From positions 24,851-88,850 of IMG/VR virus record IMGVR_UViG_3300032320_002249: 64,000 nucleotides of DNA; one strand, written 5' to 3'. Below the pieces are notes generated by a model. That model saw only the letters and a program-made list of their open reading frames with translations. It was not told the origin of the DNA and searched no databases. Position 1 is the stretch's first letter. Each line of letters begins with the position of its first letter. Both the position numbers and the translations under genes were made by a program. This DNA comes from a virus (Duplodnaviria; Caudoviricetes). Positions 1 to 24,458 of the stretch are shown piece after piece.

Positions 1-1
1 A

Positions 2-85
2 GAAGACATTATTATGCTAGTAAGGGCAACTGATTTTATTGTTAACAGTTATTATGAGAGTAAAGGTCACCGAATTTATTCTTAA
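2..85 (+). CDS. 3' end of an LRV/HEAT-like repeat protein (array member 1, truncated by the window edge)
   Basis: Manual translation EDIIMLVRATDFIVNSYYESKGHRIYS* matches the C-cap motif (ED.I.L.RA..FI) shared by all downstream paralogs. Confidence 0.85.
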   Translation, partial: EDIIMLVRATDFIVNSYYESKGHRIYS

Positions 86-87
86 CC

Positions 88-508
88 ATGAATTATACCA
101 AAAAAAATAAGACTAGCTAACAATCCAAATACATCACCTGAGATGTTATCACGTCTCTCTAAGGATCATAATCTTTGGGTTCGTTGTCATATTGCAAGGA
201 ATCCCAATACACCAACAAATGATCTCATAAAACTTACCAGGGATACCTCTCCCACAGTTCGACTGTGCCTTGCACATAGGGCCAATTTAACAACTGAGAT
301 TCTTTGTATTCTTAGTAAAGATTTTTCCTGGGACGTTAGAAGGGCAGTATCCTTTAATCCTAATACACCATTAGATATTCTTATGGAACTTGCTAGAGAT
401 AGTAGTAGTCTAGTTCGTGGCAAGGTTATAAACAATCCCAAGGCCCCGGAAGATGCTATCATACTAGCCAGGGCCATTAATTTTATTATATCTATGAGGT
501 TCTTATGA
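88..508 (+). CDS. LRV/HEAT-like repeat protein 2 (4 repeats + C-cap); A8-tract frameshift near the 5' end
   Basis: The ORF from 143 has NPNTP..L..L..D....VR..VA repeats. ATG at 88 gives MNYTKK-IRLANNPNTSPEML only if one A is removed from A8 (100-107), which restores register with paralog MNYLDKYKIAGDPNTSPETL. Confidence 0.8.
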
Positions 509-945
509 GCTACTATGATGAGAAATTTATTCAAAGGGTGATGCTAGCTAGGAATCCAAATACATCGCCTGATGTGTTATTAAGTCTTTCTAGAGATATT
601 ACCATTCATATTCGATGTGATGTTGTAACTAATCCTTCTGTCACAACGGAAATCCTAGAAATCCTTAGTAAGGATACTTCTTGGCTTGTTCGGGCTGTAG
701 TCGCCAATACCACCAAAACACCTCCAGGCATTCTTAGGAAACTTGCTGGAGATGCAGCTGAGCGTGTAAGGTGTATGGTTGCCTCTAATCCTAGTACCCC
801 ACCTGATGTTATTATGACCCTTGCTGGGGATGGGGATTGGTGGGTAAGGAATGGTGTCATATTGAACCCCAAGGCCACAGAGGATGTTATAATGTTAACC
901 AGGGCCATTGGTTTTATTGGATCTATTAAAAACATTACACCATGA
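505..945 (+). CDS. LRV/HEAT-like repeat protein 3 (4 repeats + C-cap)
   Basis: 26-aa repeats (78-nt period, e.g. 787 to 865); C-cap NPKATEDVIMLTRAIGFI; ATGA overlap with the previous gene. Confidence 0.9.
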   Translation: MSYYDEKFIQRVMLARNPNTSPDVLLSLSRDITIHIRCDVVTNPSVTTEILEILSKDTSWLVRAVVANTTKTPPGILRKLAGDAAERVRCMVASNPSTPPDVIMTLAGDGDWWVRNGVILNPKATEDVIMLTRAIGFIGSIKNITP

Positions 946-1442
946 ATTATCTTGACAAATATAAAATTGCTGGTGATCCAAATACCTCACCCGAGACCTT
1001 ATCAATTCTTGCTAGGGATGATAATTCTAGTGTTCGTTATAAGGTAGCAGGTAATCCTAATTGTCCACCAAAAATCCTAGAAATTCTTAGTGAGGATCTC
1101 GATAATTCGGTTCGGACAAGGGTTGCATTTAACAAGAATACACCCCAGAAAATTCTGGAAATTCTTAGTAAGGAGAGTGATTACTGGATTCTAAGAACAG
1201 TAGCACAAAATCCCAATAATTCCTTGGACACCCTTAGGAAACTTTCTAGGTCAAATTATAGATGGATCAGATCTTTAGTTGCCTCTAATCCTAGTACCCC
1301 ACCTGATGTTCTTATGACCCTTGCTGGGGATGAGGATGAACTGGTTCGTCGTTGGATCGGACGCAACCCAAGTGCCCCGGAGGATGCTATCATACTGGTC
1401 AGGGCCATTAGTTTCATGGAGGACCTAATGTATGGATTATAG
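942..1442 (+). CDS. LRV/HEAT-like repeat protein 4 (5 repeats + C-cap)
   Basis: Same repeat framework; C-cap NPSAPEDAIILVRAISFM. Confidence 0.9.
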   Translation: MNYLDKYKIAGDPNTSPETLSILARDDNSSVRYKVAGNPNCPPKILEILSEDLDNSVRTRVAFNKNTPQKILEILSKESDYWILRTVAQNPNNSLDTLRKLSRSNYRWIRSLVASNPSTPPDVLMTLAGDEDELVRRWIGRNPSAPEDAIILVRAISFMEDLMYGL

Positions 1443-1923
1443 TTATTTGTTAGATCTCGCTAAGGATCCCAGAACCTCACCAGAGGTTCTATTAAATCTT
1501 GCTCATTCGGTATATTGGGTTGTCAGGAAATATGTTGCAGATAACCCAAAATGTCCCCCCGAGGCCCTATCAATTCTTGCTGGGGATGAGAATGTTAGTG
1601 TTCGCAGTTCCGTGGCATATAATACCAGAACCCCACTAGAGGACCTTAGGAGGCTTGCAAAGGATGGTCGCTCGGCGGTTAGGCTAGAAGTAGCCAATAA
1701 CACCAAAACCCCTCCAGAGGCCCTTAGGGAGCTTGCTGGGGATTTCTATGAGTCTGTCAAAAATTATGTTGCCCAAAACCCCAATACTCCACCGGATGTT
1801 CTTATGGAATTTGCTGGTGGTAAATCTACATTTCATCGTAGGGCAATTGTAAGAAACCCAAATGCCACGGAGGATGCTATCATGTTAGCAAAGGCCCTTG
1901 ATTTTATTCAATATTATGGATAG
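1432..1923 (+). CDS. LRV/HEAT-like repeat protein 5 (5 repeats + C-cap)
   Basis: Same repeat framework; C-cap NPNATEDAIMLAKALDFI. Confidence 0.9.
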   Translation: MDYSYLLDLAKDPRTSPEVLLNLAHSVYWVVRKYVADNPKCPPEALSILAGDENVSVRSSVAYNTRTPLEDLRRLAKDGRSAVRLEVANNTKTPPEALRELAGDFYESVKNYVAQNPNTPPDVLMEFAGGKSTFHRRAIVRNPNATEDAIMLAKALDFIQYYG

Positions 1924-2329
1924 TGTAAAATTTGATCTCGCAAGGAATCCTAATACAACCCCAGAAACTCTTAGGGAGCTTGCTGGAGACAAGGAACCTT
2001 ATGTTAGGGAATTAGTTGCAAATAACCCAAATTGTCCCCCAGAGGTCCTATCAATTCTTGCTGGTGATAAAGATTATCATGTGAGATATAATGTCGCTAG
2101 GAATATTAATACTCCTCCAGATTCTCTTAGGGAGCTTGCTTGTGATAAAGATGTTTCTGTCAGGAATTATGTTGCCCAAAACCCCAATACTCCACCGGAT
2201 GTTCTTATGGAGCTTGCTGGTGATAAATTTCCTCTTGTAAGATATGAAGTTCGGCACAATCCAAAGTCCCCGGAGGATGCTATCATGTTATCAATGGCCC
2301 TTGATTTTGTTCTTTATGAATTATCTTGA
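1916..2329 (+). CDS. LRV/HEAT-like repeat protein 6 (4 repeats + C-cap)
   Basis: Start moved to ATG 1916 (MDSVKFDLARNPNTTPETL) by comparison with paralogs; C-cap NPKSPEDAIMLSMALDFV. Confidence 0.9.
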   Translation: MDSVKFDLARNPNTTPETLRELAGDKEPYVRELVANNPNCPPEVLSILAGDKDYHVRYNVARNINTPPDSLRELACDKDVSVRNYVAQNPNTPPDVLMELAGDKFPLVRYEVRHNPKSPEDAIMLSMALDFVLYELS

Positions 2330-2572
2330 AAAATGATTTTGGCAAACAGTCCAGATACTCTACCAGAAACTCTAGGCATCCTTTCTATGGATTCTGATTC
2401 TGTTATTCGTCATTTGGTTGCACTAAATCCTTCTACTCCACCTGAGGCTCTTAGAGAACTTGCTTCTGATCTTCTTTCTCAGGTTCGTGATGGGGTTCTA
2501 TACAATCCTAATGTTACCGAAGAAATTATACTTTTATCTAAGGGAATCGCATTCATTTTAAAAAATAAATAG
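2316..2572 (+). CDS. LRV/HEAT-like repeat protein 7 (2 repeats + C-cap); A5-tract frameshift near the 5' end, with an in-frame ATG at 2333
   Basis: Adding one A to A5 (2329-2333) gives MNYLEKMILANSPDTLPETL, in exact register with MNYLDKYKIAGDPNTSPETL; C-cap NPNVTEEIILLSKGIAFI. Confidence 0.8.
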
Positions 2573-2596
2573 TAATTATTAGAGACACTTGCACCG

Positions 2597-4282
2597 ATGG
2601 TTACTTATTCAGAGTTTATACAAATTGCAGAGAGATATTATCAACCAGATGAACCTCTACAATCAGGAAAAACCCCATATGGTAAGGCAGTTTCTTCTAC
2701 CTATAGACAGAAAGGAGAATTCAAAAGATCCTCTCCAGATAAGAAAACCCCGGATGCAGAGTCTCGTATTGAAAGGCAACGTCGTAACACTTACTCAAAA
2801 GTAAAACACGGGGCAGATAATCCTAATTTTAATTTAACCCCTGATTCTAATTATGATGTGAAAGGAAAAGGAGGCGATAATCTAGAAGTGACAGATACTA
2901 AACGTGGATATTCAATGCAATTATCTAGGTTAAATTCTACTGTTATGGGTAAGCCCGAATATGATGTTACATGGACCAACAAAAATAGAAGAAGAGATGG
3001 AGCTAATCCTGGAAAATCCAGAAGGGTAGTTAGGGATATTACTCGTATGTGGAAGCAACAGGTGTCGCCTCGTCTTCCTTATAATTCTGTATTATCAAAC
3101 TATCCCCAATTTAATGATACAAGTGACAGAAATACAAGAGCTAAGTTTTATTCAAAGTATGCTGGATTCGGTGATATGGCTGACTTTGATAGTGCCCAAT
3201 ATGCAAAGGTAGAAAGAGAACCCTCATCCCGCCAAGCCGCAAAAGGAGTATTACGAACTAAACCTATAGATGCCCGTGCTGCAGAAGATAGTATAGTGGA
3301 TCTTAGTAGTAAGATTCGCGCAAGATTAGATGCTACAAGACAGCATAAGCCAATTCCACGCCAAACAGAACCCCGTAAAATTGCACCTGCCAAACCATCG
3401 AGACCATCTATTATTTCACCTCCAATTAGATCATCAGTTCAACGTTTTAGACCAATAACACCAAAACTTCGTGGAAGACTTGCCCTGGCTGGAGCTGCCC
3501 TTACTGGTGCCGGGGCCTTGTATGATTTAATGAGGTCTAAAAGAAAAAAGCCATTCGGTGAAAGTGTAGTATTGAGAGCCCTTAGATCTGCTAGAAATAT
3601 TAGAAGATTATCTTCCTTGCTACCTGGACCTAGATCTACTGGTTATAAAAAACAACTTACAGTAGGTCCAAGTAAAAGTATTGTAGGTCTAGAACGCCAA
3701 AGAAAAGATAGTTCAACTAGGGCCGCATTTCGTAGGGCTGGAATGAATAGATCTCAGGAAGGTGGTAATAGAATAAGATTTAATTCTACAGATGAAAAGA
3801 ATAAATTCTCTAAAACCGCTATATCTTCATATCCATCCCAATCCTCGTATGCCCTAGATATGATTCCTGATAAAGTAAAGGAAAGAATGTATGGTAATGG
3901 AGTGAGATCAACTCAAGAAAGATCCTTATATTTAAGAAGATTAAGAAGACAACTTGGAGGAAGTCGTACTAGAAGAGGTGTTCATAATGTAGATATTTTA
4001 CCTAGGGGTAGTTATATGAAAAATGATCCAAAAGAGTTAGTTAGTAGGGGAAAGGAGTACAATAGGGTTGTTAGGGAACTACCCCAGGAAGTGAAAAATG
4101 TAGGTGGAAATAGGGGGGATAAGATTGTAGGAAAGGCATCTGAGGTCATGATTGGAGCAACTGATACTGAGAAAGGAAGAAGAAAAAGAAGGGATTTATA
4201 TTCAAGAGCACTCGGAGCAAGTTCCTGGGATCCAATTACAAGAGTTCAGGTTGCTAGTATAAGAGAAGAATTGATGTATTAA
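2597..4282 (+). CDS. Highly basic 561-aa protein, probable internal head (poly)protein
   Basis: N-terminus MVTYSEFIQIAE resembles the T4 internal-protein capsid-targeting sequence MKTYQEFIAE; R/K-rich; late-promoter-like AATAAATA at 2564-2571. Confidence 0.6.
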   Translation: MVTYSEFIQIAERYYQPDEPLQSGKTPYGKAVSSTYRQKGEFKRSSPDKKTPDAESRIERQRRNTYSKVKHGADNPNFNLTPDSNYDVKGKGGDNLEVTDTKRGYSMQLSRLNSTVMGKPEYDVTWTNKNRRRDGANPGKSRRVVRDITRMWKQQVSPRLPYNSVLSNYPQFNDTSDRNTRAKFYSKYAGFGDMADFDSAQYAKVEREPSSRQAAKGVLRTKPIDARAAEDSIVDLSSKIRARLDATRQHKPIPRQTEPRKIAPAKPSRPSIISPPIRSSVQRFRPITPKLRGRLALAGAALTGAGALYDLMRSKRKKPFGESVVLRALRSARNIRRLSSLLPGPRSTGYKKQLTVGPSKSIVGLERQRKDSSTRAAFRRAGMNRSQEGGNRIRFNSTDEKNKFSKTAISSYPSQSSYALDMIPDKVKERMYGNGVRSTQERSLYLRRLRRQLGGSRTRRGVHNVDILPRGSYMKNDPKELVSRGKEYNRVVRELPQEVKNVGGNRGDKIVGKASEVMIGATDTEKGRRKRRDLYSRALGASSWDPITRVQVASIREELMY

Positions 4283-4354
4283 AAAATGTATTAAAAAATA
4301 TAATGCTGTGTTTTTGTTAGGACGTTAAATGATAAAAAAATCTTATGTGAATAG

Positions 4355-4630
4355 ACTTATAATGATCTTATAAACATACCTATAATAGCCTTATAATGTC
4401 TAAATGATCTTATAAACATAGCCTTATAATAGCCTTATAATTCCCTTATAAACATACCCTTATAATAGCCTTATAATGCCTAAATGATCTTATAAACATA
4501 TAAACATACCTATAATAGCCTTATAATATCCTTATAAACATAGCCTTATAATAGCCTTATAATAGCCTTATAATTCCCTTATAAACATACCCTTATAATG
4601 TCCTTATAATGCCTAAATGATCTTATAAAC
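4355..4630. repeat. AT-rich degenerate tandem array of CTTATAA units
   Basis: About 19 CTTATAA copies by eye plus several degenerate ones; the commonest unit TAGCCTTATAA is 11 bp; no ORF. Confidence 0.95.
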
Positions 4631-4792
4631 CCCTCTGGGACTTGTGGACTAAGCCCGCAAGAACTCACACGGGCCTCTATAACACACCCAGGCCCGCGAA
4701 AATTTCTACCAGGGACACTTAAAAAACTGGCATAAGGCCCATACATACCTCATAGGTTTCTCCTATAATAACGACTTGGACACAGAGGACTT

Positions 4793-4939
4793 ATGGATTT
4801 CGAGGCATATACCACTGAAGGCTACGAATATAATGACCCCGGAGATCTCGATGGGGATTATATGAATCTCGACGATCTTCTACAAGAAGAACTAGAGGAT
4901 CGTGCATTTTATATCAACGAACGCATGTTAGTATCATGA
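4793..4939 (+). CDS. Small acidic hypothetical protein (48 aa)
   Basis: Manual ORF MDFEAYTTEGYEYNDPGDLDGDYMNLDDLLQEELEDRAFYINERMLVS with a GAGGA RBS, after the promoter cassette at 4712. Confidence 0.7.
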   Translation: MDFEAYTTEGYEYNDPGDLDGDYMNLDDLLQEELEDRAFYINERMLVS

Positions 4940-5100
4940 ATATTCCAAGGAAACAGCATAAGGTCGTCATTCTAGATGTTGAGTCTTATGATGACCTTCA
5001 TCTAGATCAGCTAGATTGGCACAAACTTCTAAATCTAGAAGGAAGCGAACAGGTTTCTGTAAAGATAAAGGAACCTTATGAAAGCCTTCTTCATAATTGA
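4936..5100 (+). CDS. Small hypothetical protein (54 aa)
   Basis: Manual ORF MNIPRKQHKVVILDVESYDDLHLDQLDWHKLLNLEGSEQV...; ATGA overlap with the previous gene. Confidence 0.7.
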   Translation: MNIPRKQHKVVILDVESYDDLHLDQLDWHKLLNLEGSEQVSVKIKEPYESLLHN

Positions 5101-5137
5101 CCAAAATCTCGACTAGGCCCACCCTTACCTTATAATT

Positions 5138-5455
5138 ATGGACTACCATCAAATTAATCAGATTAACGAGAAAATCAAAGATCTTCAAAAAGAACTCGAC
5201 AGTCTCATTGAGAAAAAGAAAACTTTAGAGGATAGCTTTATTCCCGAAGGGTTTAATCCAGTATGTGCTGAAAAGTGTGTTAATGGAAAAAATTGCCTTA
5301 GATTGGCATTTAGATGGAGTAGTACCCCACAAGGAGATGAATATTGGCGACAACGAACATATGCCCCTACTCTTGATCCTCTAGATACAATCATCATTCT
5401 AAAATGGATTGTAAACTATTATAAGGCCAAGGCCGGCTGTGGGTGCCAAAAATAA
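5138..5455 (+). CDS. Coiled-coil plus F.W..TPQG..YW domain protein (paralog family member 1)
   Basis: N-terminal heptads, AFRWSSTPQGDEYW, LKWIVNYY. Confidence 0.8.
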   Translation: MDYHQINQINEKIKDLQKELDSLIEKKKTLEDSFIPEGFNPVCAEKCVNGKNCLRLAFRWSSTPQGDEYWRQRTYAPTLDPLDTIIILKWIVNYYKAKAGCGCQK

Positions 5456-5524
5456 TACTGTCCACCCAAATCTCGACTAGGCCCAGGCACACCTTATAAT
5501 AAGAAACGTCACCCACAGCATCTC

Positions 5525-5851
5525 ATGAACATTCTAGAAATCAACAAAGAAATTAAAGCGTGCGAAAATAAACTCGTATCTCTCAAGGAACAACGTCAGA
5601 GATGTTTCGAGTCTGTTGATTTTTATCCTCCAGATACGGTGGTTTTAAAATTTGATCCCCCCGACATTCTTAGGATTCTTTCTGGTTCTTTAGATATTCA
5701 ACATCTTAACTCTTGTTTTGACTGGAGTATAACCCCACAAGGATACCAATATTGGGATGGGGTCTCAATGGAGAAAACTCTTTCTAATGAGAATCGGCTA
5801 ATTCTGCTCAATTGGATAACGAATTATTACCGTAAGAACCCGACAGTTTGA
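5525..5851 (+). CDS. Coiled-coil plus F.W..TPQG..YW domain protein (member 2)
   Basis: CFDWSITPQGYQYW and LNWITNYY, paralogous to 5138; has its own promoter cassette. Confidence 0.8.
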   Translation: MNILEINKEIKACENKLVSLKEQRQRCFESVDFYPPDTVVLKFDPPDILRILSGSLDIQHLNSCFDWSITPQGYQYWDGVSMEKTLSNENRLILLNWITNYYRKNPTV

Positions 5852-5923
5852 GAACTGTCCACCAGGGCTCCCTAGTAGGGGGCCTTTCTTGTTACCTTAT
5901 AAGGGTCCCGCCAAGTCACCCAC

Positions 5924-6619
5924 ATGGATCGCAAGGCGCTTTACGAAAAAATTCATGCAATGCTCCGACTCCAGGAGAGCACCAACTTTGAGGGAGAGGC
6001 CGCTGCGGCAGCCGCCCTCATTGATAAGCTCTGTCGGCAGTATGGTGTTACCCTTGATGACATTCTTACCCCAGAGGTCATTGAAGAAGTCTTTGCAGTA
6101 CAGAAGAAACTCAACAATGCAGAGTTCATGTTGTTTACTGCAGTGGGACGATTCTATGATGCTGCACCTATTCTGAGGAAAGTTAACGTCTCTGGACAAC
6201 GGGCTCAGCAGAAATTCGTCTGCGTGGGCACCGAGGCCCAGCAGATTCAGACTAAGCTCTATTACGAATATCTCCATGAGGTTATGGAGAGGGAGTGCAA
6301 AAAGGCCCTTACTGCGGAGAAACTGCTTGCCGAGATCCAGGGCAAGACCTTCCTTGCATATGGTTTTAGCACAAATTTCAAAAAGGCATTTGTCGAAAAG
6401 GTCGAATCTCGTCTTAATGAGATCAAAAAGGCCCAGGGGGATCATCCCCATAAGAACTACACCCTGGCGGTCTATAAGAAGATGAAGCTGGGAACTATCA
6501 AGTCCACTTATAAGATGGGTGCTGGTGCCATGGCTGGGGCACAGGTAGGGGCCTCTGTGGGGCTTTCTAAGCAGGCTAGTGGGGCTGCCAGCACTCCTAT
6601 GCTGTCAGGGTCCTTCTAG
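5924..6619 (+). CDS. DUF2786-like domain protein
   Basis: N-terminal KIHAMLRLQESTNFEGEAAAAAALIDKLCRQYGV matches the recalled DUF2786 pattern (KI.KLL.LA.S.N..EA..A...A..LM.KY). Confidence 0.7.
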   Translation: MDRKALYEKIHAMLRLQESTNFEGEAAAAAALIDKLCRQYGVTLDDILTPEVIEEVFAVQKKLNNAEFMLFTAVGRFYDAAPILRKVNVSGQRAQQKFVCVGTEAQQIQTKLYYEYLHEVMERECKKALTAEKLLAEIQGKTFLAYGFSTNFKKAFVEKVESRLNEIKKAQGDHPHKNYTLAVYKKMKLGTIKSTYKMGAGAMAGAQVGASVGLSKQASGAASTPMLSGSF

Positions 6620-10543: not shown

Positions 10544-10612
10544 CACTTGTTGGACTGTCCACTAGGGACTGGTGATTGTCGATCCTGGCCCCTAGTATTG
10601 GATGGTCCTCTT

Positions 10613-10686
10613 GGGGGTGTATCCCAATAGGCAGAGGAAGCGCACTTAAAATGCGTTCAGTGTGGGTTCGAATCCCGCGGCCCCTA
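10613..10686 (+). tRNA. trnL: tRNA-Leu(UAA) with a short variable loop and an imperfect acceptor stem
   Basis: D arm TCC-CAATAGGCAGA-GGA; anticodon arm GCGCA-CTTAAAA-TGCGT; T arm GTGGG-TTCGAAT-CCCGC; acceptor GGGGGTG/GGCCCCT; discriminator A; no CCA; own promoter cassette at 10540. Confidence 0.8.
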
Positions 10687-10704
10687 TTCCCACAATTAAC
10701 TTCA

Positions 10705-16316: not shown

Positions 16317-16707
16317 ATGAAAAACACCAACGGCGAACCTGTCCTTTCCGCTGCAAGTGTTCGGGTTTATCGCAATCATCGGGAGAACTGCTGGAGCATC
16401 CAGCGCAAGACTTCCAAAGGTTGGAGAGTGTGGCTGCGCTGGGACTATGTTGTTCTTGACAATGTTGATTTCATTGTCAACAAGGCAGGACAAGATCGTG
16501 TCCGAAAAGAGAACAAAAAGTATGTTCATGCCTTTGCCCAAGGTACTCTCATGGCGAACACCTTGGGACCGAGAGAGAATGATTCGGGTGAATTATAATC
16601 CTTATGATACCGATTTCTTCCAAACTCGTCATGGTGATCTACATAAAGCACAACGAGTTTGGTTGACAAATGAGGGTGAAGTTTTCTGCGAGGGTATCAC
16701 AAAATAG
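16317..16707 (+). pseudogene. Conserved phage hypothetical gene (VYRN..., KYVHAF..G, V.YNPY) frameshifted at a (GA)4 repeat
   Basis: The N-half (16317-16598 frame) and C-half (...RVNYNPYDTDFF..., 16357 frame) join into one ORF if one GA is added at about 16570-16579. These motifs are recalled as co-occurring in a single protein family. Confidence 0.6.
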
Positions 16708-16787
16708 ACACCTTCACAACTGTCACAAGAGGCACTCTGGAGACTTATAGGGTGCCCTATCCTAAGAGAGTCGATCCCCCAGGAACC

Positions 16788-16943
16788 ATGAAAACGATCT
16801 ATGTGACCATCAAGGTTCAGATTGAGTCTGATGCTGATGCCCATGAGACCATCCAGGAATGTGACTACTCCATGACAGGAGAGGGTATCCTTGGAACGGA
16901 GATCATCTCAGTAACAGACGAACACGATGTTTCTGTCTTCTGA
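16788..16943 (+). CDS. Small hypothetical protein
   Basis: AGGA RBS; start placed after the cassette at 16705. Confidence 0.7.
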   Translation: MKTIYVTIKVQIESDADAHETIQECDYSMTGEGILGTEIISVTDEHDVSVF

Positions 16944-17023
16944 GGACGGTTTCTGAACTGGCACAGGGACATCCAGTGTGGTGTCCCAGCTGCTAGGATT
17001 ACCTCAGTTCACACGATCCAGTG

Positions 17024-17194
17024 ATGACCACCACTGACTACAGCTGGGCAGAGAACGCCATGCGCTGCTCTGCTGTTCGGGCACAGTCCCTGGTGCCTTA
17101 TGAGGCACAATCCTGGGCACACTACAGACTGCAGCGGGAGCGTGATACCCTGCGGGCCTTGATTGATCTGCATGTTCGCCTACACCCCTGCTGA
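17024..17194 (+). CDS. Small hypothetical protein (56 aa)
   Basis: Manual ORF between the cassettes at 16943 and 17200. Confidence 0.6.
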   Translation: MTTTDYSWAENAMRCSAVRAQSLVPYEAQSWAHYRLQRERDTLRALIDLHVRLHPC

Positions 17195-17283
17195 GTTCAT
17201 GGACGGTCGCTGAACTGGCACAAGGGGCCTTGAGTAACCCCCAAGGCCCATCTATTCTGAATCTGTTCTTGAGGAATCAAACG

Positions 17284-17946
17284 ATGGTGAAGTTCATCCT
17301 TCGGATTGAAGAGCACGAAGAGTATGGCGGTTTGGGTATTGTTTTCAATACCGGCCGGGACTATTTTCAGCCTGCTCTCGATGGTGACATTCTTGCCCAT
17401 GACATTCTGGAGCATCCTGTTACTCCACATTCCAATGGTTACATTGACGAATTGATGGCTTTTGGAGGTATTATTGCAGGGAGAATTACGACTGGTTGGA
17501 TGACAAGATACGGCAGAAGAGCTACTACTAATTGGATTGTTGATGATGTAAGATCTCTAGCAGATGCTGCCCTAAATGCTGAAGATAACGTCTGCCCAGA
17601 GATTTGCACAAGTTATCTGCAAGATAGCGACCTGATGGATGTGATCAAAACGAACGTTCATAAGGGACTTTTGGACGCAGTGAATGAATACGAAGACGAA
17701 GACTATACACGCATCCCAGCAGAGTACGATTATGATCTGGAATCTATTGTCGGTTGGATCTGTCGTGGTTACCAACTATACAGAAAAAGGTTCGGAAACA
17801 ACGTTTATGATGTATCCAATCACCTCTTTGATAAGATCTCGCTAGTATGCAATGACTGGTTGAAAGTTGCAGAAGAGGGAGACTTTGCCGAACTCATTAT
17901 CAACTTTTCCAGCCTCAATGCAGAATTGATCCGCGAAGAGGTTTGA
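17284..17946 (+). CDS. Acidic hypothetical protein with an AHDILEH...DELMA motif (possible metal-binding enzyme)
   Basis: H-x3-EH motif plus a downstream Glu; GAGG RBS after the cassette at 17200. Confidence 0.75.
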   Translation: MVKFILRIEEHEEYGGLGIVFNTGRDYFQPALDGDILAHDILEHPVTPHSNGYIDELMAFGGIIAGRITTGWMTRYGRRATTNWIVDDVRSLADAALNAEDNVCPEICTSYLQDSDLMDVIKTNVHKGLLDAVNEYEDEDYTRIPAEYDYDLESIVGWICRGYQLYRKRFGNNVYDVSNHLFDKISLVCNDWLKVAEEGDFAELIINFSSLNAELIREEV

Positions 17947-18007
17947 CAACTCGGGAGATCTAGTCTAGGATTAGGTCTCCCACTCTCCCCGCAATTCTTC
18001 AATCTCG

Positions 18008-18205
18008 ATGGACTCTCAACAATTTCTCTATGAAACTTATCGCAAGTTTCAACAAGACAATAAGCACCAAAGAATGGGTCAGTTTTACTACAACCAGTTC
18101 AGGGATCAGTTTCCTAACATAGAAGTTCCTGAGGAAGCTGATTGTTACTATGATGACAAAAAGCTAGTGATTTTCTGTATCTTTGTTGGAAACCAGACAC
18201 TCTGA
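18008..18205 (+). CDS. Small hypothetical protein
   Basis: TTGACA-17-TAGGAT promoter at 17943; stop codon inside palindrome 1 at 18194. Confidence 0.7.
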   Translation: MDSQQFLYETYRKFQQDNKHQRMGQFYYNQFRDQFPNIEVPEEADCYYDDKKLVIFCIFVGNQTL

Positions 18206-18276
18206 CAACTGGCACAAGGGGCCTTGATCTACTGGCAAGGCCCTGCAAGGATAGGTTATCCCAAAGGAGGTTCCTC

Positions 18277-18507
18277 ATACCCATCAAACACATTCTCGCT
18301 TCCTGTATTTCTTGTGCTGATGATAAAGGCACAATTTCCTATGGGTTAGCTCTTACTCTTGTGGAGCACTATAACCTGACCGATCAATTCCAAACCGAAT
18401 TCGGTATAGCTGGAGACTGGGAAGATGTAGTGGATGATTCACCTATTGGGCTTGACCTGGGAGAGTTAATTTTGTGGATTTCTGATCGTACCACTCTCAA
18501 CCGATAA
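18277..18507 (+). pseudogene. 76-codon reading frame beginning with ATA behind a strong RBS (mutated or non-canonical start)
   Basis: AAAGGAGGTTCCTC-ATA-CCC... stays open to TAA at 18505 and fills exactly the space between two cassettes. Confidence 0.55.
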
Positions 18508-18585
18508 GCAACACTTATCATTCAGGGGTTGACAGGATCAGCCCCATGCCCTATTCTAAGGAAGTCAACCAAGGGAGGTTTCCCA

Positions 18586-18708
18586 ATGACCAGTTTCCAT
18601 TTTCGTTCTGTCTGCGATCTCCAGACTCGCCGCCTCATGTGGATCAATGAGGAAGGCAAGATTGCAGAAGCCTGGGAGTGGGCTGCAATCTGCCGTAGGA
18701 TGTCCTGA
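18586..18708 (+). CDS. Small hypothetical peptide (40 aa)
   Basis: TTGACA-17-TATTCT promoter and GGGAGG RBS. Confidence 0.65.
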   Translation: MTSFHFRSVCDLQTRRLMWINEEGKIAEAWEWAAICRRMS

Positions 18709-18766
18709 ATCATCTCCGGGGGATGCTACAATCATCCCCTATTCCTCATTCCTTCGCTATCTGATC

Positions 18767-19117
18767 ATGGCAGTTTATCTCAACACCTACGAAACCTGGG
18801 AAGCCTATGGCGGCCCTGAGGAAGGTGGATGGTGGTATGAGTGTGGTTCTCCAGTTCAGTCTCTCCTAATCTCTCACGATGATTATGAGGAATGGATGGA
18901 AAACGCAACCGATGAGTTGCTTTCTATGCGTGAAAAAGCAACCTATAACTACACCCAAGGCCAGGCCCCCACTCCAATCAAGAATGGTATGGGAGGTTAT
19001 ACTTTCGTCCTGGGTAGTGATACCCCTTCAACCTACCAACGGGATAACAGCTTTAATTCATGCTTCGAGGAGCATTTTGCAGAGCCTTATCCTAAGGAAA
19101 GGCCCCACTACTGCTGA
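18767..19117 (+). CDS. Conserved phage protein with a YGGPEEGGWWY motif
   Basis: The motif is recalled as recurrent in phage early genes; start moved to ATG 18767. Confidence 0.75.
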   Translation: MAVYLNTYETWEAYGGPEEGGWWYECGSPVQSLLISHDDYEEWMENATDELLSMREKATYNYTQGQAPTPIKNGMGGYTFVLGSDTPSTYQRDNSFNSCFEEHFAEPYPKERPHYC

Positions 19118-19150
19118 TTCATTCAATCCACAAATACAGGAAGTTTCCTC

Positions 19151-19639
19151 ATGCTTACCGGATCCAGTCTCCTCTCTATTCATTCTCTCGATCTTCCCCT
19201 TAAAGAAAAGACTATCAGGGCTGGATACGGCCCCCGTCCCAATAGAAAAACACCACAGTACACTAGGTATTATGAGAACATCCTAAGAGCAGAAGTGCAA
19301 CGGGATGCAGAGTTGACAGAAGGAAATACAATTGACATGCAAATAGTCAATGCAATTCGAAACAAAAACACTACAACTATTGGAAACAGCAAGATTATAG
19401 TAAATGGAGAAACCGTCAAGGTACATCTCTATTTTGATGAGATTGCCGTTATCTCATACAAAACCAGGAAAGTTCAGGTCTATAGTGTGAACAAGTCCAA
19501 GACTATCAAGACCAGGCTAAACCGAATTCTGATGCACTTCACCGGGACTAAGCTATTCCAAAAAGACCAAAAGTGGTTTATCTCCTCAGCCCTGGAATTA
19601 CATCCGTTTGATTTTATTATGGAAGTTCCCATGATCTGA
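19151..19639 (+). CDS. Cyanophage-type hypothetical protein
   Basis: The C-terminal half (VKVHLY..EIA.I...SKTIKTRLNRIL) resembles a common T4-like cyanophage early family. Confidence 0.7.
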   Translation: MLTGSSLLSIHSLDLPLKEKTIRAGYGPRPNRKTPQYTRYYENILRAEVQRDAELTEGNTIDMQIVNAIRNKNTTTIGNSKIIVNGETVKVHLYFDEIAVISYKTRKVQVYSVNKSKTIKTRLNRILMHFTGTKLFQKDQKWFISSALELHPFDFIMEVPMI

Positions 19640-19726
19640 CCCATAAGCAACACTGATCGTTCAGGGGGTTGACTGGTTCCGGTTTATCCCCTATTCTAAG
19701 AGAGTCAACCAAAGGGAGGTTTCCCC

Positions 19727-20089
19727 GTGATCCGCGACGAAGACTACAAAAAGTATCAGGTTGGTGATCGTACCTTTCCGGGTAAGTTTGCCCCTTATGC
19801 TTGGGTTCCTGTTCAATTCTCCGCACGGTACATCTACTGGCTCAATGAGATGTTTATGGGAGGGATGATTAACCTTCCATTCAATTATCTTCTCTGCCTG
19901 GGTGATTATGCTACCACGATGGATAGCGATGGCGAATACAAGTATGTGGCAGGTTGGAACAAAAAGGCTATTCTTATGAAGGCCCTGAGTGATGAGGAAG
20001 CCAAAGAGTATCAGGAGGCAATTGATGCAGAGGCAGCCTACTTTGCCCATCAGGAAATGAGAGCCGAACAAGGATGGTATGATTATTGA
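19727..20089 (+). CDS. Hypothetical protein (GTG start)
   Basis: Palindrome-2 cassette and GGGAGG RBS. Confidence 0.75.
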   Translation: MIRDEDYKKYQVGDRTFPGKFAPYAWVPVQFSARYIYWLNEMFMGGMINLPFNYLLCLGDYATTMDSDGEYKYVAGWNKKAILMKALSDEEAKEYQEAIDAEAAYFAHQEMRAEQGWYDY

Positions 20090-20261
20090 TTAGATCGAGG
20101 CCCCTTAATCTAGGGGCCTTTTCTTATGAAATCTCGAAGAGATACTATCAGATTATCTTATAGGTCTCAATCATCTCATAAGAACTACTAATCAATCAAC
20201 ACTTGACAAAATCACAAATCCTGGTTATTGTATAAGAGTAAACCACAAAGGAAGGTTTCCA

Positions 20262-20522
20262 ATGGCTGCTGACATCGTTCTGCTCACTAATTCTACCAAA
20301 GAGGTTGGTAAGTATATCGTTTATCACGAATGGGATACGGTTCTTGAATGTGGGGAAATTGACCAATCTACATTTGATACTTTTAAGAAAGCTATTGAAG
20401 GTAGATTGTATTATCATGCACTTGTCTGTCATTGTAAAGGCGAAATGGATGAGGTTGATAAACAGCTGGAGTCTGATTATGAAGAATACAAGAAAGAGTG
20501 GGGCAATACTTATAGCGAATGA
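20262..20522 (+). CDS. Small acidic hypothetical protein
   Basis: Follows module copy 1 (TTGACA-17-TATTGT promoter, AGGAAGG RBS). Confidence 0.75.
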   Translation: MAADIVLLTNSTKEVGKYIVYHEWDTVLECGEIDQSTFDTFKKAIEGRLYYHALVCHCKGEMDEVDKQLESDYEEYKKEWGNTYSE

Positions 20523-20609
20523 CCCATAAGCAACGCTGATCGTTCTGGGGGTTGACCTGATCCGGTTGATCCCCTATTCTGTAGAAGTCAACCAAAGGGA
20601 GGTTCCCCG

Positions 20610-20924
20610 ATGTTCACCGCACACGATTACACCAAAGAACTCTGTAAAGTTCTGGAGGATAACTACACTTCCTACAATAATGGGAAGGGTGGTTATACTT
20701 TCACAATCGAAGAGGGTAAGAAATACCTCAAAGTTATCATGCACACTGAGAGAGGGAGCGGCTCAGTTCATTGTTTCGTTGACAAGAATACAGGCGAAGT
20801 CTACAAGCCCCAGTCATGGAAAGGTCCTGCAAAGATCGTTCGTTTCTGTCTACTCAATGAAGAATCCCGCAAAGAGTGTTTTGAGCGGGCAGACTGGGCC
20901 GGCGGATACCTCTATCTGAGATAG
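20610..20924 (+). CDS. Conserved cyanophage hypothetical protein
   Basis: SVHCFVDKNTGEVYKPQSWKGPAK...ADWAGGYLYLR motif, recalled from T4-like cyanophage early genes. Confidence 0.85.
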   Translation: MFTAHDYTKELCKVLEDNYTSYNNGKGGYTFTIEEGKKYLKVIMHTERGSGSVHCFVDKNTGEVYKPQSWKGPAKIVRFCLLNEESRKECFERADWAGGYLYLR

Positions 20925-21004
20925 TTACAGAATGTTAAGCGGACCCCTCCGGGTCCGCTCGTTCCATGCTAGGATTCCAGAGTCAACCACAGGGAGGTTC
21001 CCCG

Positions 21005-21439
21005 ATGCGTATCCACACCACCAGCAACTATCTCAACCACTGCAAGTTGCAGATGGATTCCATCTTCCGGTCGGCAATACATCACATGCCGACTGCTATT
21101 GAACTCCGCGAAGAGTTCAATAAAGTGTATTCGTCGGATCAGTTCACTCGGATGCCTGATTGGGCTAAGAGTTCTGTGAGACAGCATCACAAACAAATCC
21201 TGCAAAGGATCTACCGGGAGCACACAATGCAGCTTTATGTTCTCCCGAACGGTGATAAAGTTATCACTCAAGGGGCCTGGGATTCGTTTCCCGAAGAGGT
21301 GAGAGAATCTGCCCGGACTGGTGGTAAGTTGCCTCTCAAGTTCTTTTGGTGTGAAATAAAAGAAACCTGCACCCAGAATGGTGTAGTCACCCGTACTTCG
21401 ACTCCCACCGATAAAGTCTATTATGAATCGGTGGAATGA
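21005..21439 (+). CDS. Hypothetical protein
   Basis: GGGAGG RBS before ATG 21005; terminator at 21448. Confidence 0.75.
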   Translation: MRIHTTSNYLNHCKLQMDSIFRSAIHHMPTAIELREEFNKVYSSDQFTRMPDWAKSSVRQHHKQILQRIYREHTMQLYVLPNGDKVITQGAWDSFPEEVRESARTGGKLPLKFFWCEIKETCTQNGVVTRTSTPTDKVYYESVE

Positions 21440-21608
21440 GTAGACCGAGGCCCCTTAATCTAGGGGCCTTTTCTTTATAGAATCTCGAAGAGATACTATC
21501 AGATAATCTTATAGGTCTCAATCATCTCATAAGAAATCTCAATCAATCAACACTTGACAATCTCTCAATTCTCAATTATTCTAAGATAGTCAACAAAGGG
21601 GTTTCCTA

Positions 21609-21863
21609 ATGTTTCAGCTTCGATTCTATTGTTTGGATCCTGACGGAACACTTGACTATGTTGTAGATGGTGAATACATTGCCATAGAACATGCACAATA
21701 CCGGGTAGAACATTCTGGAAGTATGTGGTACTTCTATCCGTTCCCGGTTGTCTTTGTTGATGGCAAGTTTCACTCTGTTCTTTATACTCCATCGGAGGCA
21801 TCTTGTGTTAACCTTATGTCTGACGGTTTGTCTATCAAGAATCGTTTGGAGGCTCTTAGATAA
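21609..21863 (+). CDS. Hypothetical protein
   Basis: Follows module copy 2. Confidence 0.7.
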   Translation: MFQLRFYCLDPDGTLDYVVDGEYIAIEHAQYRVEHSGSMWYFYPFPVVFVDGKFHSVLYTPSEASCVNLMSDGLSIKNRLEALR

Positions 21864-21943
21864 GCAACACTGATCGTTCTGGGGGTTGACCTGATCCGGT
21901 TGATCCCCTATTCTAAGAAAGTCAATCAAAGGGAGGTTCCCTA

Positions 21944-22069
21944 ATGTCGTTTCCGTTTCTTGATGATAAGCAAGTCGAAGAATTGGAGCAATTCGGTATG
22001 GTTGAATGGACTGAAGAACTACAGGAAAGGATCAAAGATCACTACAAGATTGTGGAAGAGAAAGAATAA
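21944..22069 (+). CDS. Small acidic peptide (41 aa)
   Basis: Manual ORF with a GGGAGG RBS between a cassette and a terminator. Confidence 0.65.
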   Translation: MSFPFLDDKQVEELEQFGMVEWTEELQERIKDHYKIVEEKE

Positions 22070-22238
22070 TCAACTGCCCCCCCAATCTAGGGGGCTTTCT
22101 TTATAGAATCTCGAAGAGATCCTATCAGATAATCTTATGAGTCTTCATTCATCTCATAAGAAATCTCAATCAATCAACACTTGACAGGATCTCAACGATC
22201 CCCTATTCTGTAGAAGTCAAGCAAAGGGAGGTTCCCTG

Positions 22239-22448
22239 ATGTCTGCTCAAGGTCATGCAACAGCTGGAGACTTTAGCAGCTGGCAAGCACAAGCTAAGCA
22301 AATGACAGCAGCACAGCTACACTGGACGATCGAAGATTGCCGAAAGGCAATGTGTGCCATGAGTGGCTGGAATCCGGTGAGGGAAGGATACTATAAAGAC
22401 CAAATGCTAACCTATGCAGACGAGGCAAGACGCCGCAGGTCAGTATAA
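22239..22448 (+). CDS. Hypothetical protein
   Basis: Follows module copy 3; terminator at 22454-22478. Confidence 0.75.
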   Translation: MSAQGHATAGDFSSWQAQAKQMTAAQLHWTIEDCRKAMCAMSGWNPVREGYYKDQMLTYADEARRRRSV

Positions 22449-22588
22449 GAAACGGCCCCCAACTCTGGGGCCTTTCTTTATACTTTGGGATTCTCAGGAA
22501 GTCTTAAGGTTTCAGGTCTCGCACCGGGCCTCCCGGTGCCCTATACTGTGGAGGTCCCCACCGCCCCGGCAGGTTGCCGGGTAACACC

Positions 22589-23191
22589 ATGGCCCAGACC
22601 TTCACCGTCACCAGCCGCCGCGATGGCACCACCAGCTTTGATTCCGACCTGAGCGACGCTCAGGTTCAGGCGGCACTTGCGGCCGTGCGCGGCGACTTCG
22701 CCGCTTCCCTGCTGCGGCAGTGGGGCCGCCTGAGCACGGCTCAGCTGGCGTGGGCTCACAAGCTGGCGTTGCAGGTCACGGCGCCGGCTGCTGCGCCGGC
22801 TGGCGATTCTCAGCTGGCGGGGCTGTTCGCTCCGTTCGATCATGCCCGCCAGGGTGGCAGGAAGCGTCTGGCGATTCGGACGCCAGACGCTATCCTAAAG
22901 CCCAGTAAGTGCGGGGATTATCTGTACGTCTCAGATCCAAACAATACCGAGCCCGGTTATTACGGGTCGCAGCCCCGATACCTTGGCAAGGTGAGCCGCC
23001 AGGGTGTAACGAACTGCTCTGCAGAGGTTGCAGATAACCTTCGCCTGATTGCAGCAGACCCGCTATCGGCGGCGGTGGCCTACGGTAGGCTCACAGGATC
23101 CTGCAGCATCTGCGCTAGAACGTTGACCGATCCGGTCAGTATTGAGAGGGGGATCGGTCCCATCTGCGCTGATAATTATGGGTTGCTTTGA
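22589..23191 (+). CDS. DUF6011-like zinc-finger domain protein
   Basis: C-terminal YGRLTGSCSICARTLTDPVSIERGIGPICA (C-x2-C...LTD..S...GIGP.C); GC-rich codons. Confidence 0.75.
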   Translation: MAQTFTVTSRRDGTTSFDSDLSDAQVQAALAAVRGDFAASLLRQWGRLSTAQLAWAHKLALQVTAPAAAPAGDSQLAGLFAPFDHARQGGRKRLAIRTPDAILKPSKCGDYLYVSDPNNTEPGYYGSQPRYLGKVSRQGVTNCSAEVADNLRLIAADPLSAAVAYGRLTGSCSICARTLTDPVSIERGIGPICADNYGLL

Positions 23192-23201
23192 GTAGCCTAT
23201 C

Positions 23202-23227
23202 GGCCCCCAATCCGGGGGCCTTTCTTT
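23202..23227 (+). terminator. Intrinsic terminator
   Basis: GGCCCCC-AATCC-GGGGGCC followed by TTTCTTT. Confidence 0.8.
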
Positions 23228-23335
23228 ATGTTTTCGCCCCTGCTGGCAGGATTCTCACCATCTTTTAAGGTTTCGGGGCTGGCAAGCCCCCCCCCGTGCC
23301 TTATACTGTATAAGTCAACCAACGGGACACCCCCC

Positions 23336-23677
23336 ATGGCTCGCAAGATCATCCCCACCGCTCCCCAGGCCGTCGCTGACGCGGCAGAGGCTTACCGCGT
23401 CGCGCTGGAAGTGTTTGACGCGGCAGAGGCCGCGAAGGTTGCCGCTGCTGCAGCCCTGCTGCAGGCTATGCAGGCTGCAGCCCTGACTAGCGCCCGTGCC
23501 GAGGCCGGCACGGTTTCGGTTATCCCTGGTCGCACAAGTATTAAGATCGTTGATGATGCTTTGGAAGCTGAAATCGAGGCCAAGAAAGCAAGAATCGCGG
23601 CAATTATTGTCGCCGCAGTAAAGAAAGGGAAGGCGAAAGAATCGCAGGGTTCGCCCTACGTTAAGATGAACCGCTGA
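23336..23677 (+). CDS. Ala-rich helical hypothetical protein
   Basis: ATG 23336 after a TATACT -10 at 23302; GC-rich. Confidence 0.7.
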   Translation: MARKIIPTAPQAVADAAEAYRVALEVFDAAEAAKVAAAAALLQAMQAAALTSARAEAGTVSVIPGRTSIKIVDDALEAEIEAKKARIAAIIVAAVKKGKAKESQGSPYVKMNR

Positions 23678-24449: not shown

Positions 24450-24458
24450 ATTAAATTT

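Follow-up and report, generated by a model that had tools for sequence, protein, structure and literature searches.

An array of about 21 tandem LRV paralogs extends over 10.8 kb (genome positions 16657 to 27422) of an uncultured T4-like cyanomyovirus, where it takes up ~12%, or about one eighth, of the 89-kb contig. It begins 8.2 kb ahead of the window, by which we mean the whole 64,000-nt stretch of this contig that was analyzed, and the last 7 of its genes fall within it. Window positions 2-2572 hold the C-terminal end of one paralog and six complete paralogs (Table 1). The first-pass annotation had described at least seven overlapping paralogs here, which is borne out, and the family is larger than that count. 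A PF01816 profile search of the genome gave 29 LRV repeat matches from genome position 17014 to 27320, and 21 ORFs were counted. The array comprises about five same-strand transcription units, sits in a non-structural genome region, outside the structural module, and encodes small (61-166 aa), stand-alone proteins.

Table 1. Features at the downstream end of the LRV array, in window coordinates.
Feature	Position	Strand	Remarks
LRV15 C-terminal end (gene at genome 24552-24935)	2..85	+	Cap helix 2-40, then degenerate second cap-coding copy
LRV16 N-terminal stub, frame 1 (MNYTKKNKTS, stop)	88..120	+	A8 run at 101-108
LRV16 body	110..508	+	Open frame from 110, first ATG 143; 3.5 repeats and cap (434-487); Pfam LRV E 2.3e-12
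LRV17, 146 aa	505..945	+	4 repeats and cap (865-918); ATGA overlap with LRV16; Pfam LRV E 1.8e-19
LRV18, 166 aa	942..1442	+	5 repeats and cap (1365-1418); ATGA overlap with LRV17; Pfam LRV E 2.1e-21, LRV_2 E 1.1e-16
LRV19, 163 aa	1432..1923	+	5 repeats and cap (1855-1908); 11-nt overlap with LRV18; Pfam LRV E 1.2e-24
LRV20, 137 aa from ATG	1916..2329	+	N-terminal half repeat, 4 repeats, cap (2258-2311); 8-nt overlap with LRV19; Pfam LRV E 2.4e-25
LRV21, 79 aa, last gene of the array	2333..2572	+	2 repeats and cap (2504-2557); Pfam LRV E 7.6e-9
561-aa basic, low-complexity ORF	2597..4282	+	Starts 24 nt past the array end

Neighboring genes at positions 2-2572 are separated by gaps of 2 and 3 nt or overlap by 4, 4, 11, and 8 nt, junctions that are compatible with translational coupling. 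For LRV20, the listed start is a TTG at 1898, with an ATG at 1916. A consensus promoter scan performed at chance level (44 found versus 45 expected), and a repeat scan found no inverted repeats of at least 18 nt. The LRV15 translation ends in EDIIMLVRATDFIVNSYYESKGHRIYS directly before the stop codon, and its last stretch contains a 40-nt unit in 2 copies at 9-86 with a 78% match (TRF); this duplicated cap-coding tract is left over from a recombination event there. In LRV16, the family-type N-terminus resumes in frame 2 from position 110, and one A fewer in the A8 run would fuse both frames. This frame break may represent an assembly error, a pseudogene, or slippage. The only exact-protein match lies in a single ENA contig; as this contig and the present record are 100% identical, population variation cannot be read from it. 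The 561-aa ORF that follows the array has no Pfam or PHROG family and no homolog among the three further LRV-rich records described below.

All six complete ORFs in the window match the Pfam LRV family PF01816, with 35.8-87.6 bits against a gathering cutoff of 21.6 (E 7.6e-9 to 2.4e-25). HEAT (PF02985) exceeds its 23.5-bit cutoff in two window ORFs (24.1 and 34.3 bits) and is below it or absent in the others, while HEAT_2 is under its cutoff in all of them. Unannotated proteins in BFVD named "Leucine rich repeat variant", from uncultured phages, match at E ~1e-7. The corresponding ESM Atlas clusters have 84-171 members each, most of them viral. An HMM built on the repeats places all units in one 26-residue register, with 2-5 units per protein in the window, and together with the conservation over 67 repeats this agrees with the fixed 26-aa framework that had been proposed. 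The proteins begin with a B-type half repeat and continue with 1-5 repeats of 26 residues, in which helix A occupies positions 6-12 and helix B positions 18-26. They end in the cap, one long helix of 17 residues that takes the place of the next helix A.

Structure prediction, which had been suggested as a check, gave a confident helical solenoid for LRV20. From a single sequence, AlphaFold2 reached a pLDDT of only 41 for LRV19; supplying the paralog alignment remedied this, and the LRV20 model has a pLDDT of 97.8, with 10 alternating helices of 7-9 residues and the cap as helix 120-136. VIA-align of this model gives Z 12-13 to alphaRep, a value of borderline meaning for helical repeats, and Z 10 to the PP2A A subunit. 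Against 1LRV the score is Z 9.8 (rmsd 2.8 A, 123 residues aligned, 28% identity). The model is a HEAT-like solenoid, to which the alphaRep artificial binders come closest.

Sequence variation is distributed very unevenly along the repeat. Entropy over the 67 repeats is 0.4-2.0 bits at the conserved positions (1-5, 7, 9, 12, 13, 15, 20, 21, and 24) and 3.0-4.0 bits at positions 10, 11, 14, 16-19, 22, 23, and 26. All strings around the conserved VR that the first-pass annotation had quoted as variable (LWVRCH, PTVRLC, WDVRRA, IHIRCD, ERVRCM, WWVRNG, YHVRYN, and FHRRA) are found in window repeats. By DSSP of the model, positions 18, 19, 22, 23, and 26 occupy one 140-degree arc opposite the conserved V20, V24, and A25, and from this helix periodicity they are predicted to be exposed on one face of helix B, which upholds the proposed architecture of a scaffold with a variable surface. 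The same five positions are the randomized binding positions in alphaRep libraries (PMC3754942). In the phage proteins this stripe is rich in Trp and Tyr, with Trp enriched 16.5-fold at positions 18/19 and 5.5-fold at 22/23, and the five-residue combination is distinct in 67/67 repeats. A Trp ahead of the VR motif is common among LRV proteins generally, and part of the aromatic bias may therefore be structural.

Over all paralog pairs, pN/pS is 0.98 for variable codons, 0.45 for framework codons, and 0.41 for the cap helix, in site classes that were taken from the same data as the comparison itself, while pS is similar across the three classes (0.54-0.65) and near saturation. A pN/pS of about 1 at variable sites is the value that neutral drift of exposed residues would give. 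The concern raised at the outset, that the variable residues might be buried or evolve neutrally, is answered in part: helix periodicity in the model predicts them to be exposed, but the substitution ratio fits drift. One explanation is then that the array is a tolerated, expanded repeat family in which framework and cap are kept for folding, exposed residues drift neutrally, and there is one shared target or no specific target at all. It is consistent with this explanation that every exposed position of both helices varies, and not the one stripe alone. Two observations on the array itself point the other way: a 16-fold Trp enrichment at positions 18/19 is a misfit with neutral composition in a genome of 37% GC, and twenty intact reading frames have been kept despite saturated synonymous sites, with only one possibly broken. 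We consider neutral drift around a purely structural framework somewhat unlikely, also in view of the properties of the cap and its recurrence in other phages.

The cap motif, NPxA(T/P)E(D/E)xI(M/I)L.(K/R)A..F(I/V), closes 20/21 paralogs, nearly all of the family, as the first-pass annotation had claimed for every member. By itself it matches no Pfam family. In an exhaustive profile search with the last repeat plus cap, 0/157 generic LRV proteins carry it; long multi-repeat LRV proteins dominated this search, and their best stretches mostly stop at profile positions 27-39, ahead of the cap, so that it informs on generic LRV proteins and not on small capped relatives. The cap is thus not the generic LRV ending, a finding that the first-pass annotation had listed among those that would refute its proposal. 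Pattern scans and sequence searches did not find it in IMG/VR, JGI metagenomes, or 5.8 billion protein clusters, a word-based protein search with the cap region gave no candidate, and a search with the full-length LRV protein returned 7 distant LRV proteins, all without a cap. The possibility that the cap is a portable tag was rejected, since in six frames the motif occurs nowhere on the contig outside the array and on no non-LRV protein.

Because pN/pS in the cap is low while pS is similar across classes, the cap is held by selection at the protein level and not by recent gene conversion. Its 13 helix positions, which were not pre-selected, share the low rate of the 13 best-conserved positions among the 26 of the repeat (0.41 versus 0.45), and only 2-3 of them (8, 15, and 16) vary freely, which indicates constraint on more than a packing face. 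Constraint of this breadth argues against drift around a folding cap, the more so as the cap is almost wholly replaced between phage lineages. The cap may still be purely structural: the hydrophobic pattern of its core is common to the lineages, it is confined to LRV proteins, and designed repeat proteins require dedicated caps (PMC3754942).

Comparable arrays are present in three other uncultured phage records in IMG/VR, with 22, 24, and 8 LRV ORFs. Most of these ORFs end in a cap particular to their own record, NPNTPQYI.TYLKIK.FL, NPNTPHYIKKYLKIQEHL, or N.NATREVIQTVRAYEFY. Cap-helix identity is 0.59-0.93 within a genome versus 0.09-0.29 between genomes (0.49 for one closer pair), whereas the adjacent repeat of this phage has an identity of 0.38 within the genome versus 0.39-0.42 between genomes. 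Judged by these identities, the cap is specific to each phage genome, a contrast that the repeats do not display. What the lineages have in common in the cap is a hydrophobic pattern (positions 8, 9, 12, 14, 17, and 18) and a basic residue at position 13; its net charge is acidic in this phage and basic in records G001 and G002. The design of LRV repeats followed by a phage's own cap has therefore been expanded in at least four phage lineages, which again fits poorly with a merely tolerated family. Cultured relatives (Synechococcus phages B3, B23, S-T4, and S-SRM01) have no such LRV genes, and the family is thus dispensable for this phage type. Megablast of window positions 1-6000 against cultured phages gave no match, and the sole tblastn match of LRV18 among cultured phages is in Moorella phage MTATph1. 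Literature searches found no paper on LRV arrays in phages.

A constant, lineage-specific helix is also what would be expected from coevolution with a phage structural protein, and many small paralogs in a T4-like phage bring virion cargo to mind. In T4, internal proteins and Alt carry a short N-terminal capsid targeting sequence, which is cleaved and is found on unrelated proteins. The cap might similarly serve as a packaging signal particular to each phage, by which the LRV proteins would enter the head or tail and be delivered with the DNA. Both elements are shared terminal peptides on small proteins, but the LRV helix is C-terminal and limited to LRV proteins, a consistent L/I-x-E cleavage motif was not seen in an alignment of the LRV N-termini, and the array lies apart from the structural genes. 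We regard packaging as very improbable.

The genes embedded in the array raise a different possibility. A clpS gene (PF02617, E 5.2e-17) lies within it at genome positions 21536-21832; a 61-aa ORF and five LRV genes come next, without a recognizable terminator. Cultured phages seldom carry ClpS (3 tblastn hits among 50,697 records), and in G002, a second LRV-rich record, a clpS of 61% identity has LRV genes on its flanks. The LRV proteins could then capture host proteins such as phycobilisome parts and pass them to host ClpC/ClpP through the cap as docking helix, and phage ClpS and an NblA-like protein from the same operon would act alongside them. Several findings weigh against this scheme. 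Among 80 other ClpS loci in IMG/VR, only one, that of G002, has LRV ORFs within 10 kb, and G002 is also the sole record of the three to have further array-embedded genes in common with this phage (besides ClpS, a PcfJ-like gene and the LRV01 N-terminal domain), so that the adjacency may be plain synteny. No clpS was seen in the two other LRV-rich records, both of which are fragments. The strong lineage dependence of cap chemistry, acidic here and basic in G001 and G002, is a poor fit to one conserved Clp docking site. As to the 61-aa neighbor, an identity as NblA (PF04485) is not supported: no Pfam family matches it at E up to 10, its PDB sequence matches at E up to 10 include no solved NblA chain, and its sole match is the unannotated phrog_27081 (E 3.9e-6). 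The earlier suggestion of Clp or NblA as partners does not hold up well against these results, and we think degradation adaptors improbable.

With a probability of roughly one half, we favor the interpretation that the array encodes a fixed panel of intracellular binders for host takeover or counter-defense, with specificity in the helix-B stripe and the cap as a common contact. Target specificity would lie in the aromatic-rich stripe at positions 18, 19, 22, 23, and 26, with targets that would differ by paralog. The C-terminal helix would shut the hydrophobic end of the solenoid. Given that almost all of its faces are constrained and that each phage lineage has its own version, it probably also makes a common contact, either among the paralogs or with a single partner particular to that lineage. 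These roles are what we infer from the variation and constraint described above. The description of the family as an antibody-like or adaptor repertoire is sustained as far as scaffold and variable stripe are concerned, but "antibody-like" overstates the case for old, fixed paralogs with no diversification machinery among the annotated ORFs. An actively diversified repertoire of the DGR type is not supported, since synonymous sites between paralogs are near saturation, which indicates old fixed paralogs; recent "accordion" amplification was rejected on the same ground. No reverse transcriptase was seen among the annotated ORFs of the 89-kb contig, the annotation of which is not exhaustive.

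A more specific interpretation of the cap, which we hold only tentatively and judge rather unlikely, is that it is a genome-specific dock joining about 20 binders to one phage or host machine or to each other as combinatorial oligomers. Such an adaptor repertoire would redirect one activity toward many host proteins, and the cap and its partner would have coevolved separately in each phage lineage. The docking helix that had been proposed at first is retained here as a distinct, genome-specific element under protein-level selection, but not as a portable tag, and no partner was found: a search for a non-LRV gene common to all four LRV-rich records, all of them fragments, gave none.

The occurrence of three further uncultured phage records with 8-24 LRV ORFs each points to heavy investment by these phages. 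If the helix-B stripes of the proposed binder panel do recognize distinct host proteins, such arrays would correspond in nature to the repeat-protein libraries made by engineering and would provide ready-made probes for the targets of cyanobacterial host takeover or anti-defense. Since the cap is constant within a genome and replaced between lineages, it could be used as bait, and cap swaps could test for a shared partner.

Several known systems share features with this family. Poxvirus ankyrin-repeat/PRANC proteins are likewise a viral multigene family in which a variable repeat domain is joined to a constant C-terminal element, and to that extent the analogy drawn by the first-pass annotation is apt. 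PRANC, however, is a multi-helix, F-box-like domain with Skp1 as partner, whereas the phage cap consists of one 17-residue helix that continues the solenoid, and no PRANC or F-box family is among the Pfam matches of the window ORFs at E up to 0.01. The likely host group, cyanobacteria, has HEAT-like solenoids of its own in CpcE/CpcF and NblB-type PBS-lyase proteins, and CpcE/F scores Z 9.5 to the model. The phage LRV proteins are much shorter than these, with no HEAT_PBS profile match at E up to 0.01. The LRV protein of Azotobacter vinelandii (1LRV; PF01816, PF25591 LRV_2) belongs to the same repeat family by profile and has the same fold in the model, but the phage proteins differ from it in their length of 61-166 aa, their ~21 tandem copies, and their dedicated end helix. 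Typical cellular LRV proteins in the profile search, with 450-2,200 aa and 8-44 repeats, are likewise far larger than the array proteins. The best structural match is to thermostable HEAT-like repeats of the alphaRep/Mth187 type (3LTJ, 3LTM, 4JW2, and 7Z0G). AlphaRep proteins differ in being man-made, with 31-residue repeats and ~20% identity to the phage proteins, and the likeness suggests how the phage LRV proteins could bind, not that they do. Common to both are an N-cap, n repeats, a C-cap, and variation at positions 18, 19, 22, 23, and 26 of the second helix, and in solved alphaRep complexes this variable second-helix surface is the binding surface (PMC3754942).

The first-pass annotation had reported at least seven overlapping LRV/HEAT repeat paralogs at window 2-2572, and this run is real: it holds the end of one ORF and six complete, tightly packed ORFs, all six above the Pfam LRV (PF01816) cut-off, with junctions that overlap by 4, 4, 11 and 8 nt or leave gaps of 2 and 3 nt. 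The array begins upstream of the window and is larger than first noted, with about 21 paralogs (LRV01 to LRV21) recognised by ORF reading. It is interrupted by non-LRV ORFs of 86 aa, 234 aa (phrog_17480) and 61 aa, a PcfJ-like ORF of 288 aa, and clpS. A clear terminator, a terminator-like hairpin, and three AAGTGGCACA modules placed before -10-like boxes suggest that the array comprises about five transcription units, three of which would be headed by AAGTGGCACA. A scan for consensus promoters gave results at chance level.

Features of the record and of three other LRV-rich phage records (window, window coordinates; genome, coordinates of the whole record)
Feature	Position	Remarks
CCA-adding-enzyme-like ORF	genome 553-1320	upstream of window; by eye
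EF-Ts-like ORF	genome 3033-3635	upstream of window; by eye
LRV array, ORF reading	genome 16657-27422	10.8 kb, ~2,600 codons
PF01816 matches	genome 17014-27320	
AAGTGGCACA, three copies	genome 17498-17520, 21461-21490, 23925-23950	directly after LRV02, LRV07 and LRV12 stop codons; all upstream of window
Terminator-like hairpin	near genome 17842-17870	
Terminator	genome 20352-20374	
clpS, inside array	genome 21536-21832	979-683 bases before window start; PF02617, E 5.2e-17
61-aa ORF after clpS	genome 21838-22023	unannotated phrog_27081 sole match (E 3.9e-6)
LRV ORF end	window 2-85	
Degenerate second cap-coding tract	window 9-86	after LRV15 cap
Six complete LRV ORFs	window 88-2572	
A8 run in LRV16	window 101-108	+1 frameshift
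60-nt tract, LRV17 and LRV18	window 778-837 and 1278-1337	96.7% identical
Intergenic repeats	window 4361-4630	after 561-aa gene
166-aa ORF	window 7105-7605	matches C-terminal domain of ribosomal protein L7/L12 at 27.8 bits (cut-off 25.9)
tRNA-Leu (anticodon TAA)	window 10612-10687	single
Large terminase ORF	window 54012-55904	LAGLIDADG_3 (E 2e-12) and Hom_end matches at residues 283-355
G001 (99,981 b)		22 LRV ORFs, 16-17 with own cap, NPNTPQYI.TYLKIK.FL
G002 (125,003 b)		24 LRV ORFs, 17-18 with own cap, NPNTPHYIKKYLKIQEHL
G004 (37,702 b)		8 LRV ORFs, 8 with own cap, N.NATREVIQTVRAYEFY
Second-class LRV proteins, G001	81587-82204, 98720-99136	
Second-class LRV proteins, G002	39712-40326, 47368-47820, 58683-59270, 83882-84286	

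A repeat HMM found 67 internal units, all in one 26-residue register, with conserved positions 1-5 (NPNTP), 7, 9, 12, 13, 15, 20, 21 (Arg) and 24, and entropies of 3.0-4.0 bits at positions 10, 11, 14, 16-19, 22, 23 and 26. The AlphaFold2 model of LRV20 (pLDDT 97.8, with 20 paralogs as alignment) has an N-terminal helix (3-10), four pairs of helix A (repeat positions 6-12) and helix B (18-26), and a long last helix (120-136), a layout by which each LRV protein starts with a B-type half repeat and finishes in an extended A-type helix. From the helix limits of this model, we infer that helix-B positions 18, 19, 22, 23 and 26 lie within one 140-degree arc and that the opposite arc is filled by the conserved V20, R21, V24 and A25. 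The combination of these five residues is different in each of the 67 repeats. Composition at the variable positions is not neutral, with Trp enriched 16.5-fold at 18/19 and 5.5-fold at 22/23 and Tyr 2-3-fold. Among the closest repeat pairs dN/dS was 1.17 at variable positions (1.35 for the helix-B set) versus 0.40 in the framework, and over all pairs pN/pS was 0.98 versus 0.45; the site classes were taken from the same data as the rates, which are no proof of positive selection. Variation extends to the exposed residues of helix A (10 and 11) and to the loops, so that in effect the entire surface varies, and it is the aromatic bias that singles out helix B.

Traces of exchange are found along the array. 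Behind the LRV15 cap lies a second, degenerate cap-coding tract, LRV17 and LRV18 share a near-identical tract, and LRV03 repeat 2 and LRV19 repeat 5, 8.7 kb apart, are 81% identical in DNA and have in common an unusual EFAGGK..H.R signature. Ordinary homologous recombination has thus swapped units and gene ends. A +1 frameshift, which may be an assembly error, divides LRV16: its ATG at window 88 reads MNYTKKNKTS* and the family N-terminus resumes in the next frame from 110, and one A fewer restores a full-length paralog. The frameshifted sequence is identical in an independent ENA scaffold.

Twenty of the 21 paralogs end in a C-terminal cap, NPxA(T/P)E(D/E)xI(M/I)L.(K/R)A..F(I/V), followed by 4-17 variable residues; the exception without a cap is LRV01, which carries a foreign domain at its N-terminus. 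A generic LRV ending is ruled out, since the motif is absent from all 157 LRV proteins that two large protein libraries (1.84 and 5.8 billion sequences) yielded; these proteins usually finish in a complete repeat. Maintenance by gene conversion is likewise ruled out, because 43% of codon pairs for identical cap residues differ and pS is the same in the cap helix (0.56) as in the adjoining repeat (0.54-0.65). The pN/pS of the cap helix, 0.41, is as low as that of hand-picked framework positions, and thus 13 consecutive positions change no faster than the residues buried in the core of a repeat. A cap borne by other, non-LRV proteins of the record was rejected, as in all six frames of the 89 kb the motif occurs only within the array.

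Searches of IMG/VR, JGI metagenomes and a clustered protein set did not recover the exact cap. A DNA pattern for NPNTPP.VL matched 17 IMG/VR stretches, and three of these records, from uncultured phages, are LRV-rich (G001, G002 and G004). When the four cap types are aligned on the NPN motif, positions 8, 9, 12 and 18 are hydrophobic in all of them, position 13 is basic and position 17 is mostly Phe, and nearly all other positions differ. Cap-helix identity within genomes is 0.59 in this phage, 0.69 in G001, 0.72 in G002 and 0.93 in G004; between genomes it is 0.09-0.29, save for 0.49 between G001 and G002. For the last repeat of this phage, next to the cap, identity is in contrast 0.38 within the genome and 0.39-0.42 to other genomes (framework positions, 0.62 within and 0.66-0.72 between), and 13 of 20 cap-less bodies have their best BLAST match in another phage. 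The repeats sit at a constraint plateau and carry little information on age; even so, the universal framework stands clearly apart from the lineage-specific, paralog-invariant cap. This pattern fits a cap that closes the structure and is held fixed by epistasis, and it also fits an interface co-evolving with a lineage-specific partner, possibly the other paralogs. The small number of cap positions that vary freely makes us lean slightly towards a cap that is both structural and an interface. The proposal of a constant C-terminal helix docking onto one shared partner survives in part: the cap is non-generic, selected and genome-specific, and the shared partner would be hypothetical. G001 and G002 also encode a second class of LRV proteins, in which a shared non-repeat C-terminal domain (...EQ..ALK.LI....NP.L...) takes the place of the cap.

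The clpS gene within the array raises the possibility that LRV proteins serve as adaptors for Clp-directed degradation, and the clpS of G002, 61% identical, is likewise flanked by LRV genes. ClpS relatives are rare in cultured phages, with three matches, but occur on at least 128 IMG/VR contigs. LRV neighbours were present at only 1 of 80 viral ClpS loci, that of G002. Among the three LRV-rich records only G002 shares further array-embedded genes with this phage, which makes simple synteny a possible reason for the adjacency. By eye, the 61-aa ORF after clpS is similar to NblA, yet neither Pfam nor PDB sequences gave it a match. We consider a Clp adaptor role improbable, and the suggested link to proteolysis would be conjectural.

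The window covers bases 24851-88850 of an IMG/VR virus record. This 88,850-base record (CheckV completeness estimate 41%) is judged to be a T4-like myovirus because it carries baseplate wedge, head-closure, large terminase and tail-sheath PHROGs; its closest terminases are those of Synechococcus phages B3, B23, S-T4 and S-SRM01. In the large terminase ORF the T4-type N-domain profile matches residues 426-607 only, which together with the LAGLIDADG_3 and Hom_end matches suggests an intein or inserted homing endonuclease. GC content is 38-54% over window 1-24000 (accessory genes) and 31-36% over 24000-64000 (structural module), with a composition boundary near 24 kb. The intergenic stretch after the 561-aa gene is built from an 11-12-nt unit with CCTTATAAT in it, present about 18 times and also readable as a 133-nt unit twice. 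Iterons and stacked -10 boxes are both possible identities for these units.

A 20.5-kb stretch, the array with its flanks, is 100% identical in the same ENA metagenome scaffold, and LRV20 is present letter for letter in the ESM Atlas (model pTM 0.90). The Atlas has at least 20 clusters of LRV proteins 128-149 aa long, each of 84-171 members and mostly assigned to Uroviricota, and BFVD contains unannotated LRV proteins from uncultured phages. Among 50,697 cultured phage records LRV18 matched one, a Moorella phage, and literature searches found no paper describing LRV arrays in phages.

The solved structures nearest to the LRV20 model are artificial alphaRep binders (Z 12-13), followed by the PP2A A subunit (Z 10), 1LRV (Z 9.8, 28% identity) and CpcE/F (Z 9.5). 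AlphaRep libraries randomise positions 18, 19, 22, 23 and 26, and in solved complexes the randomised surface makes the contacts (PMC3754942); these are the same five helix-B positions that vary in the LRV repeats. Of the variable binding surface first proposed, the scaffold and the exposed variable stripe are upheld, and the binding of targets would be hypothetical. We assign the array proteins to the LRV family, within which this stand-alone, capped, multi-copy phage form is new.
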